Below are positions 26,050 through 37,240 of a stretch of 64,000 bases of DNA, piece by piece (positions within the stretch are counted from its first letter, which is position 1; each line of letters opens with the position of its first letter). The DNA lies in NCBI GenBank assembly GCA_024682255.1, contig GCA_024682255.1_4716.1; one strand, 5' to 3'. Position numbers and translations under genes: made by a program. The notes under the pieces were generated by a model. The model was given only the letters and a program-made list of their open reading frames with translations. It did not search any database and was not told where the DNA came from. This DNA comes from a phage.

Positions 26050-26760
26050 TCACCCCCTCAGAATCGCTTCTGTTTCGCTGATCGTATCCGCAGGATAAAC
26101 CAAACTACTATCGATTGCGTTATTCACGTAACCACCCATTAAGTTGGTGATGGTGTTTGTACCGCTATCGATAATGTTTCGTAATCCGATGTCGATGGCT
26201 TTTAACGTACTGCGTTCTTCATCCGAAAGCAAACGCCACGCTCGACGACGATCGTTGGGGTCACGTGTGGTGATAGACGCCAGAACAGAATAGATGCTGC
26301 TGTCTGCGTTCAATTTAACGCCAGCCAATTTCGCTGACGTATAGAGCAGCTGATATTTTTCTTTCTCAGTGTACCACCATGGCACCTTACCGAGCGTATA
26401 GATCTCGTTATACATCAGCCATGGGAAAGAGTTTCGCATCACGACATCGGTCGACACCAACACCGTGTCGCCGGGAAGAAACACAAATTCATAAAACGGC
26501 TGACCATCCATGGTAATTTCACGGATGTCAGACGGGTCGATATGGAGCTGGGTCAATGCGTGGCTGACACCATACTGTCCATCAGGAAGAATAATCGGGC
26601 AGCACGCACAAACCCGGTTCTCACTCCCGATGATAGATAAACCCAATCCCTCGTAACGGACGGGTGTCAGAATCGAACACCCGCCACGAGTAACAACAGA
26701 TTTATCTTCTTGTATGTCCCAGTCCGCAAGCACCGCAGCACCGTTGCGGACAAGCGCCAT
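26050..26760 (-). CDS. hypothetical protein
   Basis: 236-aa ORF, tightly abutting neighbours. Confidence 0.5.
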   Translation of the reverse strand: MALVRNGAAVLADWDIQEDKSVVTRGGCSILTPVRYEGLGLSIIGSENRVCACCPIILPDGQYGVSHALTQLHIDPSDIREITMDGQPFYEFVFLPGDTVLVSTDVVMRNSFPWLMYNEIYTLGKVPWWYTEKEKYQLLYTSAKLAGVKLNADSSIYSVLASITTRDPNDRRRAWRLLSDEERSTLKAIDIGLRNIIDSGTNTITNLMGGYVNNAIDSSLVYPADTISETEAILRG

Positions 26761-28592: not shown

Positions 28593-28618
28593 GAGCAGGG
28601 GCATGACGCCCCCTGCTC
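28593..28618 (-). terminator. hairpin gagcagggg/cccctgctc abutting stop codon of beta-like gene, followed by GTTTATTTCGC
   Basis: inverted repeat. Confidence 0.5.
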
Positions 28619-29728
28619 TTATTTAGCGTCGTTAAAGTAAATATCAACAGCTCGTTCCGTTGCGTAGAGGAGACCAAGATTCACAGTCCCAACCACTTCC
28701 GGTGAACCGATGATACGGTTAGCGATACTGGTGCCACTGAAGATAGCATCAAGGGTGTGCCCGTCTTCGGTTTTGTTCACACCATGACCCACGGAAGAGA
28801 CAACGGATTTCGCTTGAGCTGCGAAGGTACCTTTATCACCCATCCCCGCACCAAGGTCGTAACGCATGAAAATACGGATGGCGATCTGGTTCTCGCCTAA
28901 CGGATTACCGTCTATTCTCACGTTACTGTTATTGATACGCCCCGTTGTTGCTTCGTTGAGTTTCAGTTCCTTAACGCGTTTAGCTCGTGCTTTATCCGCT
29001 TCACCGACGAGCGCTGCCATGGTTTCACTCATATCCTCAATCTGAGCGCGGTACAGTACATCGATCTGTACAACTTCACCATGAACGTCAGCACGTGGGT
29101 TATACTGACTCATACGACGTAATGCTTCAACGGCTTCCTGACTCTCATCACTCAGATCGGTTGCAATCGGTTCTTCCAGTGTTGCAAGGATCGTTCGAGG
29201 TTCAACGTGATCGCCGATTTTCACGAGACCGCGAATGTTGAGATGGGCGTCAACGATAAGCGTACGGCTCTTAATCGATGGTGTTACGAGACGATCGGCA
29301 AGATTGTCGAAGATATACGAACTGTCCTCGTGGGTCTCTGGAATATCCAGAATACCGACAAGAGACAGCACGCCTGCGCGCCAAACAACCTGACCTGGGT
29401 TCCACCAGTCGCGTTTAAAATAAAGACGATGGAAAACCACCACATCCTGATCCTTAACGCGATCCCCGACTTTATAATCGGTAATGAGATCGTGAGGATA
29501 ATACTTACCTGGTCCTTTCCCGATTATCGTACCGAGCTGGAAAACCTCTTCCCCTAACTCTGGATCGTCGTACTGTATCGTCAGCGCAGTTTTGGTGACC
29601 TTCTTGACAACACCATCGCCTTGGGCGGCAGCTGCGAAGAGTTTACCAACACGATGCGCGATAACAGTCTCACCGCCGGTGCGCCACGGTTGTACATCGT
29701 AACCTTCAGCAGCAATCATGCGGTTGTG
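28619..29728 (-). CDS. RNA polymerase beta-like subunit, exon 2 (track ORF 28619-29749 begins at an in-intron TTG that is not a real start)
   Basis: HNRMIAAEG matches beta ANRALMGAN; GDKGTFAAQAKSVVS matches beta GDKMAGRHGNKGVIS; frame open upstream into intron. Confidence 0.75.
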   Translation of the reverse strand, partial: HNRMIAAEGYDVQPWRTGGETVIAHRVGKLFAAAAQGDGVVKKVTKTALTIQYDDPELGEEVFQLGTIIGKGPGKYYPHDLITDYKVGDRVKDQDVVVFHRLYFKRDWWNPGQVVWRAGVLSLVGILDIPETHEDSSYIFDNLADRLVTPSIKSRTLIVDAHLNIRGLVKIGDHVEPRTILATLEEPIATDLSDESQEAVEALRRMSQYNPRADVHGEVVQIDVLYRAQIEDMSETMAALVGEADKARAKRVKELKLNEATTGRINNSNVRIDGNPLGENQIAIRIFMRYDLGAGMGDKGTFAAQAKSVVSSVGHGVNKTEDGHTLDAIFSGTSIANRIIGSPEVVGTVNLGLLYATERAVDIYFNDAK

Positions 29729-30264
29729 CTGTATACCTATAAATACCAATCTCTTGGGCGAATTTAGTTCTTATTCAACATAATCGTACTATTACCAGAA
29801 TAAGACTGAGATTAGATTGTTCAGATAAGGTCGTTGCTTGAAACGATCGTTTCAGCGCTCATCTTATCCCGGAGGCGACGATAGGCACATCACCTCCCGC
29901 TTGCGCTCTCACGCAAGAGCAGACTATATCACATCTCGTTTCAAACGGTGCTTCTTCAGCACCTCAACGAGAGTTCACTTCTTCCCAGCGCATCCAGCGC
30001 CATTCTCTTATCCAAGGAGAATGCCTCACTCGAGGGGTACAGGGGGATGAATCCCTTAGTCGTTGAACCTTTACCTTAGAACGCTTCACAGCGATCCTTA
30101 GGTACTTGGCTGCGGATTGTCCTTAAGCTATTATCTGTTTTTATACCATACCGTCTTTCTTTTCAGAATCCGTTTTGGTCGATAACAGCGATGGATGTCT
30201 TCGCAATTCAGTGAATCTCATCTACATGTCGCCACATAGACGGACCCTGCTATTAAAAGCGTTA
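29729..30264 (-). ncRNA. group I self-splicing intron (no ORF) in RNAP beta-like gene
   Basis: minus-strand P (AAUUGCGAAGA, 30198-30208), Q (AAUCCGCAGC, 30109-30118), R (GGUUCAACGACUAAGGGAUU, 30050-30069), S (GAUAUAGUC, 29922-29930) in canonical order; exon ends in U, intron ends in G. Confidence 0.8.
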
Positions 30265-33200
30265 ATCATCTCTATCAGCAGCAGGTACTGCAAGTGCTGA
30301 TGTACTCATTATTGACGAGCTACCATCCGTTTTCTCGTCGTAGGGTTTCGTTTCACCGTATACAGACACAATGTTTGCGTTAGGTGCAAGGTAAGCAGAG
30401 ATACCTACGTCCCCACTATCCTTCGTACCTTCGGATACAACACCAATGTCCGACTTGTCGTATTCACGATCGCGTGCGCGTCGAAGCGATGTCTTTGAAC
30501 GACCCCCAATACCGGTCATCGTCGCTTCTTCACCCTGCTTGATATCCAGCATCGGGTTGGTTTCATCGATCACGATGGAAGCACTGTCGTCGAGAATTTG
30601 GTTCCAGACACTTACCGGACTGATTGAGATTTTCTGGCGATTTCCTTGACTGCTGTTCTCATTCTGACGAATAGCGCCAACCAGATCCTTATACACCAAT
30701 TCAGCGAACTTATCGTACGTTTTAAAACGTTGGTAGTTCACATCGTTCGTGTTAGGAGCCCAATCATCCAGAAGCAATTCAACAGCACGCAGTAACAACA
30801 TGGCGAAATCGGTAGGTTCTCCCATGTTCTGCAGCAACATACGGCTTACCGGATCAACGAAAAGACGCTCCATGAGTTCAAGTTCGCGTAAATGACGAAC
30901 CTTAAGTCCGGCACCATCGACAACGTTAAAATAGATATCTCGATTGTCAAAAGCGCCGCGAGCGTAACCAATGTAGTTACGGTATTCGTTAAACCCACCC
31001 AGCAACAACGTCGTCATGCGGTCGTCTTTACTGAAGATCAAACTTTCGTCGTCAAAGCTCACCGCGAATTCATCGGGTGCTAGACCCATACGAGAACCGC
31101 GAGGTACCGTACGATAGTTTGCTTTAAGATGTTCTAATAACGGGGTGAGTCCGCCCAGATAACTTAGAACAACACCGACCGGAATACGTACACCCATGAA
31201 TTCAAGATCGGCAGCTTCGATCGGCATCTTGGCCGCATTGATGCCGAAGAAATCAGGGAACGTCCCTACAGGTGTTGGTGTTTGTCCTGACTGACAGATA
31301 TAGAGCTGATTGCGTTTATCGATTGCTAAGAATTCACCCAGCGTGTTACGCGCAAACGTCAGGAGCCCTTCGGCTAACTGTTCGTTGAACCGATCTTCCC
31401 CAATGAACTCCGGTAGCGTTTTTATATCGAGACGTATATCCCAATCAGCAAATTGGATTTGGGTATAATTGCGCGCAAGCACAGCGAAGTAGTACGGAAC
31501 TTTGACAGCTGGATCAAAGACGTTACCACGTTTTAACGTGGTTAAGGGTGAGGACTTATCGTAATACATCGCTGTAAGTTGACGTGTTAGCCAACGACCC
31601 GCATTATTAACGACGCGCTCTGAACGTTTAACAAACACCTTACCGTAGGCGGTACTCAATGCAACTTCGGATGACGATACCTTTCTAATAGGTTTATCAA
31701 CACGTTGTTTACGCATCCGGTATTTGATGCCGTTAACGACATAAATGCCGTCCTTACGAACCTTCGGCAACATCACCGGGAACGTGGTCGGGACACCGCC
31801 TACAGGAGCCAGTTTAATCGTGATGACTTGATAATCCCCCATCACGTCAACGACATCTTCAACTTTATATCCCGTGACAGGGTAACCTGCCTGCTGTACC
31901 GCAACAACGGCAGCTGCGATGTCCTTTTGCATTACGTGTTCGACGTAATGTTTATCCCACACCGCGAGCGTCGATTTACATAAGCTCTTGTCGACGATAA
32001 CATCCGCTTCCGGCATAACCTTTGCAGGCGCTAATTTCGCGGCTTTTGGTTTAACTTCAACATACTCGGCAAGTGTTAATCCAGAACCGTCGGGTGCTTC
32101 GATTTCGTGAATGGCATCGGCGTTACGCATCGCTGCTTTATATTGGACACCGCTTAACTGACCCGCATCGGCCAGATCGCTCGCGCGTACCAACACCGCA
32201 TCCGATAACGACTGAATATATTCACCATGTGTTTTTGGTAACGTTGTCGCATCAAAGACATCAACCTTTTCTTCTTCGGTATCGTCGGTAACGACTTCGA
32301 AGAGATCGTCGGTAATGTCCTGATCTTCATCGGGTTGGAAATCCGGCTGTACTTCTACCCCGGGTACTTCACGGACATCTTCGAACGAGCGTTCTACAAT
32401 GGCGTTCCACGCATCAGCGTCATCGTCTTCATCCGAACCACCGACCAACTCCGCTTCTAACTCATCGGGATCAAGAACGGTAGCCAGATCCTCACCGTTA
32501 GGAAGCACGACGTCGCGATCATCGTACTCCGCATCCGGGCTGTCTGCAAGAATATCCCGCTCTTGACGAAGAACCTGTTCCTCTTCTTGTTTCTGTTCTT
32601 CTTCATTCGCGCTCTGCGACCACAGACGTGTTACCGCCATCATCCAACGACGCTGGAAGGTTTCGAGTGTCGTTTTATCGAGTTCTTCCCCTTCCTTTAC
32701 AAGTCCGGTACGCCATTCTTCCAGCAAGCCGAGATTCAGCGTAAAGAAGTACACACCGTCTGTAAATACAACGTTAAGCTTATCCAGCGTGGCCCTGTCT
32801 AACGAAGCCATCGTGCTGTTCTCACGATCGGTTCCCAGCCAGCGGAAGAAGTCAAAGAACGACAGCTCCTCCGGTGTGGCGAAATTCATGAGGTTGTTAC
32901 GGGTCGGTGCCTGTTGCGTGGTACGCATCAACGAAATCTTCGGCAATGTTGACGGTATACGGAACAACAAAAAGTGTTGACGATCGCTTTGCTGTGCGAT
33001 TTCGTTGGCTTTCGACCAAATTGTTTTACGTACGTTGAACCATTCATCATACCAACGGGTGAGCGTTGGACGATAAATGTACATGTGGTTAAGATGCGCG
33101 TAGTTAGCAACGATCTGAGCGTTGATGTTTTTCTCTACCGTGCTTAGATCGGTAACCAAACGAAAACGACGATGTGATGCACGATAATCCAATTTCGCTC

Positions 33201-33471
33201 GTGGGAGTTGGAATCGTTGATCGCGTCGAGGTGCGCCCTGTTTGGTTGCGAGATCATCAGCAAACGAAATCCATAGTTGAGCACTTTCTTTACTCAGCAT
33301 GTATTCGTTTTCTGGAGGACCTATCAACGATGGATCCGTTGCGGTGTAATGATAGACAGCATAACGCGGCAGCTGCAATAGCTGCACTAAACGTAATCTC
33401 GGTGATAGTAGCTCTTGGTAGCGTCTGACACCGAACTGTCGGTAGTAATCAAGGTATTTAAGTTTTGCCAT
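30265..33471 (-). CDS. RNA polymerase beta-like subunit, exon 1 (includes ~450-500 aa non-RNAP N-terminal extension)
   Basis: MTGIGGRSK...SGDVGISAYLAPNAN matches beta ALGPGGLTRERAG...PEGPNIGLINSLSVYAQTN; C-terminal VPAADRDD matches beta IPFLEHDD. Confidence 0.8.
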
Positions 33472-33474
33472 GGG

Positions 33475-33654
33475 TTAGGCTCCACGAGGTCCCGTTAAGT
33501 TGCGTAATAGGAACGCAACTGTATCGTAACCAATATCAATGTTGAATTTATTTTTACCGCTTACCCAAAAAGCACGCTTCTTGTGCGAGTTGGTAATTTC
33601 GTCAATGGCTTCCATGGAATAAAGAACGTTAACCGAGACCGTATCACCGTCGAA
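33475..33654 (-). CDS. RNA polymerase beta-prime-like N-terminal subunit, exon 2 (59 codons, not in ORF track)
   Basis: translation FDGDTVSVNVLYSMEAIDE...NIDIGYDTVAFLLRNLT matches beta-prime [21 protein letters not shown]...VLGLYYMT; preceded by G (omega-G), stop 4 nt before beta-like start. Confidence 0.7.
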   Translation of the reverse strand, partial: FDGDTVSVNVLYSMEAIDEITNSHKKRAFWVSGKNKFNIDIGYDTVAFLLRNLTGPRGA

Positions 33655-35731
33655 CCTTTTCTTCGCCTCAGGTCGCTACGCTGAGACCGCCTGCGTGGAT
33701 ACGTACATCACAGGCTGCTTGCACTTTCATGCAAGAGGAGACTATATCAAACCGTCAGCTTCACCTTCTCGATCGTATCGAGAATGCGGTGCTGAAGTAT
33801 TCTTCAGCAGCACCTGCTACGGTAACCTACACTTCGAAGACGCTTGTCCTCTACAGGGTGGTAAATCCCTTAGTCGTTGAACCTGCGTTGTTTCACATTC
33901 TTGTTTGCAAGAATGCCGTATTGCTACGCAACAACCAGGCTGCTGATTGCCCATTATCACGCACCTTAGCACCGCTTACGCGGCTTTTCTTTCAGCCTAA
34001 GCCTCCGTGGGAGGTAATGTCTGATTAAATCAGACATCGCCAGGAGGTAGTGCATCTCAACTGTTGTTTCCGCCTTTCGGCACCTCATGGGTTGTTGAGC
34101 TTTAGGGGTTCCCAGCAATTCGTAGGTTTTTCAAGCACTCCCTTTCGGGAATACCGGACCATTACCCTTTAGCTAATTTATTTAAGTATCTGAAATCCCA
34201 CTTATCTTTGCGTCTATTTTCGCACTTAATAGCTTGGTTCTTTATTCTCCAAGCCACCTTTGTTTTAGGTAATTGGCTGTAATTGGCCGCTGACGCAGTA
34301 CCTAAAACAACGGTTACGGTACCATCGGGTTTAGTAATCTCTACAGCGCGATAATGCTTACGTAACACATTACGCCAATATTCACGGCGTTCTGGCTCAG
34401 CATACTCAAGCATATAACCGTTGGTATCGACCAGACCGTAACACTCGTTTAAACGAGAGGTAGCGGCCGGTCTACTAATACCGATTGCTTTAGCCGCGTC
34501 AACCACGGTTTTATACGGGGTTTCATTACCGTCTCTATCTACAACCACAATAAAATCTGGACGCGAATCGAGCAGCTGCTGTCTTCGTTCAAGGGCTTGT
34601 TGATGAAGCACCTTGTTAACATGTTCGAACCCGTAACCTTCTGGACCGCGCCACCCTGGATTGTTATTCGCTCGATAAAGTACCGTCGCTGATTTCACTC
34701 CAGTCTGACGTGACGCCTCGTTTGCACTATGAACAACCGTGGTAGAGCCGTCAGGGTGATATATCCGTATCTGGTTCATTATACCGGAACCAACAAAATT
34801 ACCATCAGCTGATTTAATATCCGGCCATGGTTGAGGATTATCCTTGAATTTAACCACCCAACGACTGTTAAACAATTTGACTTTCCGGGCATGTTTACCC
34901 ATTGTCGTATCCGTAACACCAGCTACAACAGAGGCTTGCGTGATACTCAGGTACTCAGTAACGGTATCGTCCCATGTATCCCAGAGCAGAACCGGTTTAT
35001 TGTCGTCGCGTAAACCGTGTTCGATAGCATGCAGGACATTACGACTTCTGGTTGCCCATTCAAGGTTGTCAAGAGAATAGTTCCACTTATCGGCATCAAG
35101 ATGGTTAACGTCCATCCTATCGACATCGGCTGGATACTCTCTCCACGCCAGCATTAGACAACGGTGTAATACCTTGCTACCGGCCTTCTGGCGACAATCA
35201 TGTTTCAAGCAGACAGTAACGTAACGGTTCGTTACGAAACACGGGCGACAAATGCTCCCGTCTTTTCTGTCCCTGATATCACCTACTTCGTTTATTACAT
35301 ATCTCGTCAGTCCTGGAATAACGCGATAGCCAGGATACTTAGCGATTTCATAAGCGGGCTCGAACCGATAGGATAAATTATCAACATCCCAGTTAGATTC
35401 GTCACCATCAACAAACATCGCTTTGACGTATTTCTGTGTTTCAATATCAACCAGGATGTTTTTGTGTGCGATACAAATCAATGCTGGGATATTGAATTCG
35501 CGACCGGCTAAGATAACCGTGTCGCCATCTCTCGGTACCTCGACGTGGGTATCGCGATACCGCAAGTTTCCATAGCCGTCTATTTCAATCCAGCTTAGAA
35601 ACGGAATAGATATAAATTCTTTTTCAGATACTCGCCATTTAAACATATAAACCCCTGTATAACCTTACTGTCACACTAAGAGGTTTATCTGTAAATTCTT
35701 ACAGAATGGCGTAATTTTACTAAAAGGGCCG
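33655..35731 (-). mobile_element. group I intron carrying an HNH homing endonuclease gene, inserted in beta-prime-like gene
   Basis: minus-strand P (AAUUGCUGGGAA, 34109-34120), Q (AAUCAGCAGCC, 33939-33948), R (33864-33883), S (33740-33748); HNH ORF upstream of core; 5-prime boundary by homology. Confidence 0.7.
34162..35646 (-). CDS. HNH homing endonuclease (HNH_3-type with NUMOD/IENR-like HTH modules), intron-encoded
   Basis: motif NHLDADKWNYSLDNLEWATRSRNVLHA; C-terminal AAKAIGISRPAATSRLN HTH-like repeats. Confidence 0.85.
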   Translation of the reverse strand: MFKWRVSEKEFISIPFLSWIEIDGYGNLRYRDTHVEVPRDGDTVILAGREFNIPALICIAHKNILVDIETQKYVKAMFVDGDESNWDVDNLSYRFEPAYEIAKYPGYRVIPGLTRYVINEVGDIRDRKDGSICRPCFVTNRYVTVCLKHDCRQKAGSKVLHRCLMLAWREYPADVDRMDVNHLDADKWNYSLDNLEWATRSRNVLHAIEHGLRDDNKPVLLWDTWDDTVTEYLSITQASVVAGVTDTTMGKHARKVKLFNSRWVVKFKDNPQPWPDIKSADGNFVGSGIMNQIRIYHPDGSTTVVHSANEASRQTGVKSATVLYRANNNPGWRGPEGYGFEHVNKVLHQQALERRQQLLDSRPDFIVVVDRDGNETPYKTVVDAAKAIGISRPAATSRLNECYGLVDTNGYMLEYAEPERREYWRNVLRKHYRAVEITKPDGTVTVVLGTASAANYSQLPKTKVAWRIKNQAIKCENRRKDKWDFRYLNKLAKG

Positions 35732-37240
35732 ATCACCGCCTAAACCGGCGAGGTATGGCGCAGGAACAATAGTCGTTTCTACGAACGAAGCATTAGGTAA
35801 CCAGTCGGGGTATTCCCATGCGATAAATCGTTCATCCGTTATTGGTTCCCAGTTACTATCCAGTTCGGTTTTCGGTTTTGCAGCGACGGTTGTACGCGCG
35901 TAACAGGTTAACGGGATAACGGATTGCATACCCGATACCGGATAACGTGTTACCATCGCAGCCAGGTTATTCCAGTACTTATATCCGGCGATATAGATAA
36001 GCTCGGTGTAAGTAATGGGGTGAACATCCGCACCAGGTTTATTCAACATCTCTGGGGGTAATTCACTCATACCACGGAATAACCGAAACGAATCGTTGTT
36101 CACATAGACGAGGCAAAGATAACGTCCATTGACCATGATAGGTTCATTACGCACACCAGGATCGCTTAAGGTGTTCAGTAAACGTTCGATACCGTCCCAG
36201 GTTGTAAAGTCATCGATGGTGTCTGGATCAAGCGTGACACGTTCACGTTCCATCGTTTCGGTATCGATAAGTTCAACTTCTGTAACATCACGGACAAATA
36301 TTTCCTGCAAAATCCCCGTACGTAACGCATGTTGCGTTACAGGGAGAGCAGCTTTACTCATCTGGTATAACCCTAACTGAACCGCGGTACAGGAAGGCTG
36401 GTTAGGCGACCCTAGTACCTCCGTTGTGGGGTTAATTGCCGAAATAACGTTACGGGTTGAGTTCCAAACGCGACGTGAACCGAACTTGCCTTGGAAGATC
36501 CCTTTCTTACCTTGGAACATATCCAACAACAAAGCGTAGATATCGTTAAATGTTCTCTGTAAGCTCCAGCGCTGGCCGTCGTAAACGGGATCAGAATAAT
36601 CTTTTAATCCATCAGGGACGGTGTTAGAAATTGCAAGGAAACGACGATACAACTCTGTGATTTCTTGCTCGCTTTCATACCCGCCTTCTTTTACTTCTAT
36701 TTCACGTAAGCCCGCAGGTAAAACCAGTAAGTGACGAGTCATCGCTTTGAACATGTTCTCTTCGACAACTTTAATTCGTAGCTCTCGTTGAGCTGAACCT
36801 GTTGAAACGAACTTGATATCCGCGACGTGTTGTGCAAAGAACCCATATCCTGTTTGTCCTGTTAACGCATCAGACGCAACGAAGTCGCGTTGTTCAGGAT
36901 CCCACCGAGCGTACGCCTTCCCCGACATGATATCGCCATAGAGGTGTTTTAGTCGAATGAGGCGATCGTAAATGACGGGATGCAGGATTTCAACCTTACA
37001 TTCAATCACCGCAAATCGACGGTCTCGATCTTCGCTACCCGCACTACCAAAGATGGTGTAAGAATAGAAACCATCATCGTGGAAATTACCGGTGCTTGGG
37101 TCACGGATGCTCATGCTCGTGATCTTGGGGAGAAAACGTAACTGCTGTTTATCGAGGTGTAAAATACTAATGTTAAACGGCTCTCTGACTTTAGCCATGG
37201 AGACACTCCTCTTTACCACCACCGGCTGCGGCGGTATCAT
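35732..37240 (-). CDS. RNA polymerase beta-prime-like N-terminal subunit, exon 1 (likely true start ATG at 37198; track frame continues to stop at 35720 inside intron)
   Basis: DGFYSYTIFGS ~ beta-prime DGLFCARIFGP; LLVLPAGLREIEVKEGG ~ [30 protein letters not shown] ~ NRAPTLHRLG; exon ends LAGLGGD before FDGD of exon 2. Confidence 0.75.

Follow-up and report, generated by a model that had tools for sequence, protein, structure and literature searches.

The window analysed here, a 64,000-nucleotide (nt) stretch of contig GCA_024682255.1_4716.1 (GenBank assembly GCA_024682255.1), is DNA of a Goslar-like jumbo phage of Escherichia coli. It is 93% identical to Escherichia phage vB_EcoM_Goslar, and in the phage collection Goslar alone, with no other record, matches the DNA at ~93%. 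Goslar is a nucleus-forming jumbo phage of the genus Goslarvirus. From ~37200 to ~28600, the minus strand carries in this order: a β′-like open reading frame (ORF); an HNH ORF; a stretch of 59 codons (33475..33654); a β-like ORF of 1069 amino acids; a gap; and an ORF of 376 amino acids that extends the homology to β beyond the gap. The subject of this work is the 59-codon stretch, which a first-pass annotation had read as a hidden second exon of the β′-like gene. The comparisons below indicate that this reading is right and that the stretch belongs to the virion RNA polymerase gene as its second exon. All window coordinates refer to the minus strand.

The gene context identifies the polymerase involved. 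In the window, a large tail-fibre/lysozyme gene on the opposite strand precedes β′-N and then β. The same order is found in phiPA3 (gp213, then gp212, gp211, gp210 and gp209) and in phiKZ (gp181, then gp180, gp179 and gp178). Because this order is shared, the window genes are assigned to the virion, rather than the non-virion, RNA polymerase. The interrupted gene itself is β′-N, orthologous to phiKZ gp180 and to phiPA3 gp212.

Exon 1 of β′-N (35732..37198) comprises 489 codons from ATG 37198 and matches PHROG 2986 with E = 3e-161. Without splicing, its frame continues to ...LAGLGGDRPF and a stop at 35722..35720, giving a fragment of 492 amino acids that ends at 35720, where the first-pass annotation had placed the truncation. 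A mechanical ORF call starts this frame at an upstream ATG, 37240. ATG 37198 has a GAGGAG motif 7 nt upstream, with nothing comparable at ATG 37240, and the start MAKVREPF is the one used in the gene calls of Goslar and of the intron-less alleles described below. The real start is thus probably ATG 37198 and not ATG 37240, and the mature β′-N product most likely has 548 amino acids.

Exon 2 (33475..33654) consists of 59 codons and a stop, and carries FDGD, the remainder of the Mg-binding motif, together with the C-terminus of β′-N. Its peptide (FDGDTV...GPRGA) is encoded at 33654..33478 and reads FDGDTVSVNVLYSMEAIDEITNSHKKRAFWVSGKNKFNIDIGYDTVAFLLRNLTGPRGA, letter for letter as first translated, followed by the stop TAA at 33477..33475. 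The exon has no start of its own, as had been claimed: above 33654 the frame is open for seven codons (RPEAKKR, with TAG before them) and contains no ATG, GTG or TTG. Its absence from the ORF track is likewise borne out. The caller yields just a 46-amino-acid ORF from the internal ATG 33615, which falls under a 60-amino-acid cut-off.

The evidence that we consider decisive for a second exon comes from related sequences in which the gene is uninterrupted. Searching with the conceptually spliced protein retrieved three proteins of 548 amino acids (P0001-P0003), about 100% identical to the query, which read ...LAGLGGDFDGDTVSVNVLYSMEAIDE...NLTGPRGA without a break. The intron-less contigs read ...LAGLGGDFDGDTVSV...NLTGPRGA (also given as ...LAGLGGDFDGDTVSVNVLY...NLTGPRGA) across the site. 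These proteins differ from the predicted spliced product at 1-3 residues, all elsewhere in exon 1. At the DNA level, four intron-less loci (L003-L006) are about 95-97% identical to the window; their alignment halts within a few bases of 35732, the last 13 nt of exon 1 being divergent, and restarts exactly at 33654. The intron therefore occupies 35731..33655 and is 2077 nt long, with the 5′ splice site after U35732 and the terminal guanosine (omega-G) at 33655. The junction proposed at the outset, LGGD/FDGDTV, is exactly the one encoded by the natural intron-less alleles.

Joining the exons at these boundaries is predicted to restore an uninterrupted frame, ...GGU GAU followed by UUC GAC GGU GAU.... 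The joined sequence would read ...GGCGGTGAT/TTCGACGGTGAT... at the junction, and the predicted Glu-C peptide across it is TTIVPAPYLAGLGGDFDGDTVSVNVLYSME. Moving the splice sites by one nucleotide in either direction gives GEFD or GDLD, and the invariant motif is lost.

The position of this junction matters for the active site. An alignment of 45 full-length homologues shows no variation at D489, D491, G492 and D493 (numbering of the 548-amino-acid protein), and the motif they belong to, DFDGD, is present only once the exons are joined. The initial description of exon 2 as following the catalytic aspartates holds for D489. As the exons meet between D489 and F490, the other two of the three, D491 and D493, are encoded by exon 2 itself. 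Goslar and four intron-less relatives encode the identical peptide (100%) in this exon. Compared with five alleles, exon 2 shows 5-6 nucleotide differences in each case, all at third codon positions and with no amino-acid change.

Profile comparisons are in keeping with a continuous protein. It had been proposed that the concatenated exons should score better than exon 1 alone, and this is the case for PHROG 2986, a profile of the jumbo-phage family with 539 positions: exon 1 alone scores 538.1 bits over profile positions 3-484 and the spliced protein 598.1 bits over positions 3-538, so that exon 2 adds 60 bits and positions 485-538. Homology to cellular and phage β′ was assessed against the PDB. 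A single-sequence search gave borderline matches (E about 5e-4). A profile built from the 45 homologues matched the β′ N-terminal subunit of phage AR9 (7S00_d) at 2e-16 and more than 70 bacterial β′ chains at about 1e-8, and it aligns through the junction to the AR9 β′ sequence LSGDYDGDVLNI, which contains DYDGD.

The DNA between the exons contains a group I ribozyme core. Helices P2-P9 at 33718..34180 match Rfam RF00028 over the full model (positions 1-253) with 57.9 bits and E = 4e-12, above the gathering score of 50 bits. This core is ~95% identical to that of Goslar, where GenBank carries it as 'Intron_gpI'. As read in the window, the last base of exon 1 is U and the last base of the intron is G; the 3′ end of the intron reads ...GAAGAAAAGG/UUCGAC, and its terminal G is also found in Goslar and phiKZ.

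Helix P1, which presents the 5′ splice site, likely has a long-range form. The 5′ strand of a P1 extension lies at 35720..35728 (intron positions +4..+12; CCCUUUUAG, read 35728..35720), and its 3′ strand and the guide lie together at 34157..34172. There, CUAAAGGG at 34172..34165 pairs with the 5′ strand, as checked by script, and the proposed guide GGUC follows at 34160..34157. The same check finds that the guide pairs with exon GAU and intron C+1 through G-C, A-U, U.G and C-G. At the aligned positions in Goslar, GGAAAGGC pairs with GCUUUUCU, so that the sequence is different and the complementarity is kept; in phiKZ the extension is UGUA with UACA. Directly 3′ of the extension helix, and immediately 5′ of P2, a GUC(C) is found in all three of these introns and also in a second intron of the window (discussed below); in all four, the 5′ exon ends in GAU. 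The endonuclease ORF fills nearly all of the sequence from the 5′ splice site to the core, and the window and Goslar have diverged in the opening ~85 nt of the intron and the final few ORF codons. On account of the kept complementarity and the conserved guide and GAU, we place the ORF inside the loop of an extended P1, a model that was derived by hand from three or four sequences and is likely.

Three other arrangements of P1 were rejected. The P1 that Rfam places at 34176..34154 is impossible, as the real 5′ splice site is 1.5 kb upstream. In a local hairpin (GGCG...GUGAU/AUUAC...CGCC) the splice-site U would be paired with A, and Goslar does not conserve this structure. A register built on the second GGU of GGUCCGGU would form 7 of 8 pairs in the window, but it does not hold in Goslar and is incompatible with the extension helix that covaries. 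Separately, a terminator-like hairpin (GCCGG...CGGC, then a U-rich run) at 35728..35749 spans the 5′ splice site; it is peculiar to the allele of the window, Goslar having none. It may compete with the folding of P1, or be a chance match.

The ORF within the intron (34162..35646, 494 amino acids) encodes an HNH protein of the homing endonuclease type. It contains the Pfam domain HNH_3 (PF13392, E = 1.6e-8), with the HNH motif VNHLDADKWNYSLDNLEWATRSRN at residues 176-204; it matches PHROG 59, 'HNH endonuclease' (E = 2e-24), and is 29% identical to phiKZ gp179 (E = 1e-26). The ORF lies wholly within the intron, which is present in the window and Goslar and absent from L003-L006 at about 95-97% identity. 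Directly upstream of its ATG, RNAfold of the pre-ORF segment gives a hairpin (35649..35686) that hides AGGGG, the likely ribosome-binding site. In Goslar a different sequence folds into an equivalent hairpin before the ATG. Such a hairpin may place the endonuclease under translational control, for which I-TevI of T4 is a precedent.

The exon sequence flanking the insertion site also differs between alleles with and without the intron. Across the junction, the intron-less alleles read GGA CTT GGT GGG GAC / TTT (in full, GGACTTGGTGGGGAC/TTTGACGGTGAT), the window reads GGT TTA GGC GGT GAT / TTC, and Goslar is intermediate with GGA CTT GGC GGT GAT / TTC. Between the window and L003 there are 7 differences in the last 30 nt of exon 1 (35732..35761), as against 0-4 per 30 nt elsewhere, and four synonymous substitutions in the region -9..+3 are common to the intron-bearing alleles of the window and Goslar. 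One effect of these changes is that GAC becomes GAT, supplying the splice-site U: position 35732 is U in the window and C in the intron-less alleles. This cluster of differences (35732..35761 and 33652..33654) fits co-conversion of the flanks, recoding of the endonuclease target, or both.

If the intron is active, expression of β′-N would proceed in the following way. The pre-mRNA would fold as a group I ribozyme, with P1 formed by the exon end GAU and the guide GGUC; the extension helix would close P1 over a long distance and leave the 1.5-kb endonuclease ORF looped out. Guanosine-initiated transesterification would cut after U35732, and the 5′ exon would then attack after the terminal G 33655, joining ...GGU GAU to UUC GAC GGU GAU.... 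The ligated mRNA would encode the 548-amino-acid protein with DFDGD intact. The HNH endonuclease presumably nicks intron-less alleles of co-infecting relatives and thereby drives homing of the intron.

The end of β′-N lies close to the start of β. At the exon 2/β junction (33469..33483), a GGAG at 33483..33480 lies within exon 2, 8 nt upstream of the β ATG. It is followed by the stop TAA (33477..33475), a CCC spacer and the β ATG (33471..33469). The distance of 4 nt given originally is essentially right, in that the spacer is 3 nt and the last base of the stop is 4 positions before the A. Because the stop of β′-N lies 3 nt before the β ATG, both polymerase subunits could be translated in tandem. 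The sequence TAACCCATG (TAA-CCC-ATG) is identical in all five related alleles (L001 and L003-L006), and the phiKZ counterpart is TAATCATG (TAA-TC-ATG). Translational coupling or re-initiation from β′-N to β, dependent on splicing, is plausible.

Taken together, these data make us highly confident that a mobile group I intron encoding an HNH endonuclease splits the β′-N gene between the first Asp and the Phe of DFDGD. The first-pass annotation of this exon named neither this mechanism nor the phiKZ precedent described below. Several points weigh on the other side. Splicing in this phage is predicted from the DNA sequence, and experimental splicing of the phiKZ intron is known through a secondary citation, in PMC11512511. 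The exon part of P1 is just 3 bp (GAU/GUC), short for a group I intron; the helix has to form across a 1.5-kb loop; and the P1 model comes from hand inspection of three or four sequences, too few for covariation statistics. In addition, the search for Pfam RNA_pol_Rpb1 that had been proposed as a check was uninformative: no family was reported at E ≤ 10 with or without exon 2, neither exon 1 alone nor the spliced protein being detected. This miss reflects the sensitivity of the Pfam models, from which the family is too divergent, and not its homology to β′. A Pfam 'Microcin' match of 13-18 bits was dismissed as noise.

The short exon pairing in P1 is also what a decayed, splicing-dead relic might show. 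In that event the polymerase gene would be broken, and the phage would be defective or would need a helper; the sequence of the window is uncharacterised and its viability unproven. Against this, the ribozyme core exceeds the Rfam threshold along the whole model, the endonuclease ORF is intact at 494 amino acids, and the helices remain complementary in window and Goslar despite sequence change. Moreover, Goslar, which is cultured and replicating, has the same intron with about 95% identity in the core. A dead relic is very unlikely on these grounds.

It could further be argued that the gene is simply split and is expressed without splicing, as the 492-amino-acid fragment ending ...GGDRPF and perhaps a small peptide from ATG 33615 (MEAIDE...). 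The 46-amino-acid ORF does have its own ATG, and the β and β′ subunits of jumbo phages are naturally divided among several polypeptides (PMC7598289, PMC5105663). Under such an arrangement, F-D-G-D, with two invariant catalytic aspartates, would be lost from every product. The third-position variation noted above also extends to codons 1-13 of exon 2, which precede ATG 33615 and vary as only translated codons would be expected to. Between the two pieces lies a full-length group I ribozyme, and intron-less relatives encode one contiguous protein, so that we give a split gene almost no credence. An intein (joining the protein) or translational bypassing (joining at the ribosome) has nothing to recommend it beyond the need to join two coding pieces, and the probability of this reading is vanishingly small; it is effectively refuted by in-frame stops (one comes right after the junction, following RPF) and by the ribozyme match of the insert, whose sole sizeable ORF begins 85 nt past the junction and is not in frame from exon 1, at odds with an intein, and a 2-kb gap is to our knowledge far beyond any ribosomal hop.

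The mobile intron in β′-N has an orthologous counterpart in phiKZ. There, the orthologous gene likewise has a tail-fibre/endolysin gene upstream on the other strand and β downstream. The insertion codon is the same: gp180 ends ...LGAD and a stop, with the intron after GAU. As in the window, the HNH ORF, gp179, lies towards the 5′ end of the intron, and the guide GUCC, P2 and the core come after it. Gp179 and gp178 are separated by 500 nt, in which lie the ribozyme core (Rfam, 92.2 bits) and an exon 2 of about 59 codons (FDGDTVSFNAVYSEE...) that ends 2 nt before the gp178 ATG. This exon, at about 26167..26346 (minus strand) of NC_004629 (L011), reads FDGDTVSFNAVYSEEAIAETDAFFKKR...GEPKQRD and is missing from the RefSeq record.

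The two introns nevertheless differ in several respects: that of phiKZ is 1443 nt long and its endonuclease 357 amino acids, compared with 2077 nt and 494 amino acids in the window. The intron cores are not close, a 20-nt pattern from the window core matching Goslar-like contigs only, and the phages belong to different host genera and phage genera (Phikzvirus and Goslarvirus). Introns of phiKZ that involve gp179 and gp180 are among those given in PMC11512511, with Ceyssens 2014 and Mesyanzhinov 2002 as its sources. Gp180 of phiKZ has been described with DFDGD (PMC10612078), and introns are marked in the virion polymerase genes of this phage group (PMC5105663). An intron-split β′-N is thus already established, and the window represents another member, from a lineage in which exon 2 has so far been unannotated.

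Goslar has the same intron at the same site, annotated as the non-coding RNA 'Intron_gpI' (HOV27_gs002) between gp205 and gp207; compared with the window, it has neither a 33-nt insertion in a peripheral helix nor the second intron in β. The first-pass annotation anticipated that pipelines would report a truncated β′ fragment, and public records bear this out. The RefSeq coding sequence (CDS) of Goslar ends ...GGDQGKANKMPVFWQI and a stop, with nothing annotated over exon 2 and no joined CDS, and the database protein P0005 ends ...GGDRPF, while phiKZ gp180 stops at ...LGAD as described above.

The same truncation recurs across the family. Among the best 120 homologue clusters of β′-N, 31 end 0-13 residues past the first D of DFDGD, 18 of them exactly at the D. 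Two homologues (P0078 and P0114, among P0016-P0120) run to the end of DFDGD or beyond before they stop, a hint that a few codons further on there is another insertion point, distinct from the first. In 180 of 214 matching phage genomes, at least 80% of a 115-amino-acid query spanning the junction is covered in one contiguous match.

In phiPA3, the gp210 intron, of group I, encodes an HNH nicking endonuclease and is inserted at invariant active-site residues of a chimallivirus virion RNA polymerase gene (PMC11620839). That intron lies in the β gene (gp211/gp209) and not in β′-N, and the phiPA3 β′-N gene, gp212, is uninterrupted. The gp210 endonuclease disables co-infecting phiKZ, making it a competitive 'weapon' (Birkholz et al. 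2024, PMC11620839).

More distant parallels exist outside this group of phages, several of whose features reappear in the window. The DNA polymerase genes of the Bacillus phages SPO1 and SP82 (I-HmuI/I-HmuII) and the td gene of T4 (I-TevI) carry group I introns at conserved codons of essential nucleic-acid enzyme genes. Like the introns of SPO1 and SP82, that of the window encodes an HNH endonuclease of the nicking type (I-HmuI class), as assigned by sequence, and homing with co-conversion of the exon flanks, as in the SPO1/SP82 and T4 systems, may be a further feature in common. Those systems differ in the host gene and in the place of the ORF, which is in a peripheral loop of the core there and probably in the P1 loop here.

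The window contains a second group I intron, in the β gene (29759..30264). It is 506 nt long, has no ORF and scores 56.3 bits against Rfam RF00028 (match 30266..29900). The flanking β exons are 30265..33471 and 28619..29758, and the intron splits the protein after ...AADRDD and before PKRLVFIG. It is related to the first intron in its core and in its guide, GGUC. In Goslar, L003 and L005 the β gene is uninterrupted, with 1448 amino acids, and the PHROG 3148 profile breaks at 1050/1051, between the two β exons. For the 3′ splice site, G/CCC is preferred because phiKZ gp178, intron-less at this site, reads DD/PKR contiguously and because the first two C's can pair with the guide. A 3′ splice site at AAG/AGA was rejected, as it would delete two residues.

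The site of this second intron, after the conserved DD, is the insertion site of phiPA3 gp210. In the window the endonuclease ORF has been lost or was never present. A relative (L009, IMG/VR 3300011560_000001, 2979..~4560) has an intron at the β DD site with an HNH ORF of 403 amino acids, and two others (L004 and L008) have an ORF-less intron there. Each of the two introns is present or missing independently of the other in close relatives, and all four combinations of presence and absence occur among genomes about 95-97% identical. The intron states of these relatives appear to give a snapshot of the cycle of homing-endonuclease gain and loss. At 29746..29758, directly after the site, comparison with L001, L003 and L005 shows that intron-bearing alleles encode Pro and Ile (CCN...ATA), and intron-less alleles Gly and Val. 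The intron-less phiKZ also has Pro just after the β DD site.

Directly 3′ of the β stop, a strong terminator-like hairpin (28593..28618) consists of a 9-bp stem, 7 of whose pairs are G-C, followed by a T-rich tail. A terminator is annotated at the equivalent place in the Goslar record, and the hairpin is probably the end of the β′-N/β transcription unit.

The immediate consequence of these findings is that annotations of the virion RNA polymerase systematically get its catalytic subunit wrong. In the RefSeq records of Goslar and phiKZ, and in 31 of the 120 best clusters, this subunit lacks two of the three catalytic aspartates, and cloning, modelling or counting 'active-site-containing' subunits from annotation would be misled. 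The value of the present case lies in the correction of this recurrent error and in the intron polymorphism, and not in a new mechanism.

A broader interpretation can be offered only tentatively, and we think it possible rather than probable. It holds that two related mobile introns segregate independently in this lineage, with all stages of homing visible and with recoding linked to the introns; that the DFDGD codons are a family-wide hotspot, occupied in about a quarter of known lineages; and that the two introns form a system of intron competition if their endonucleases resemble gp210. The window adds an E. coli phage to the known mobile introns of chimallivirus polymerase genes, and two polymorphic introns in one lineage provide material for tests of homing and interference outside Pseudomonas. 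If the endonucleases do act like phiPA3 gp210, these phages would offer, in E. coli, a natural and genetically tractable setting in which nucleus-forming phages compete by means of introns.

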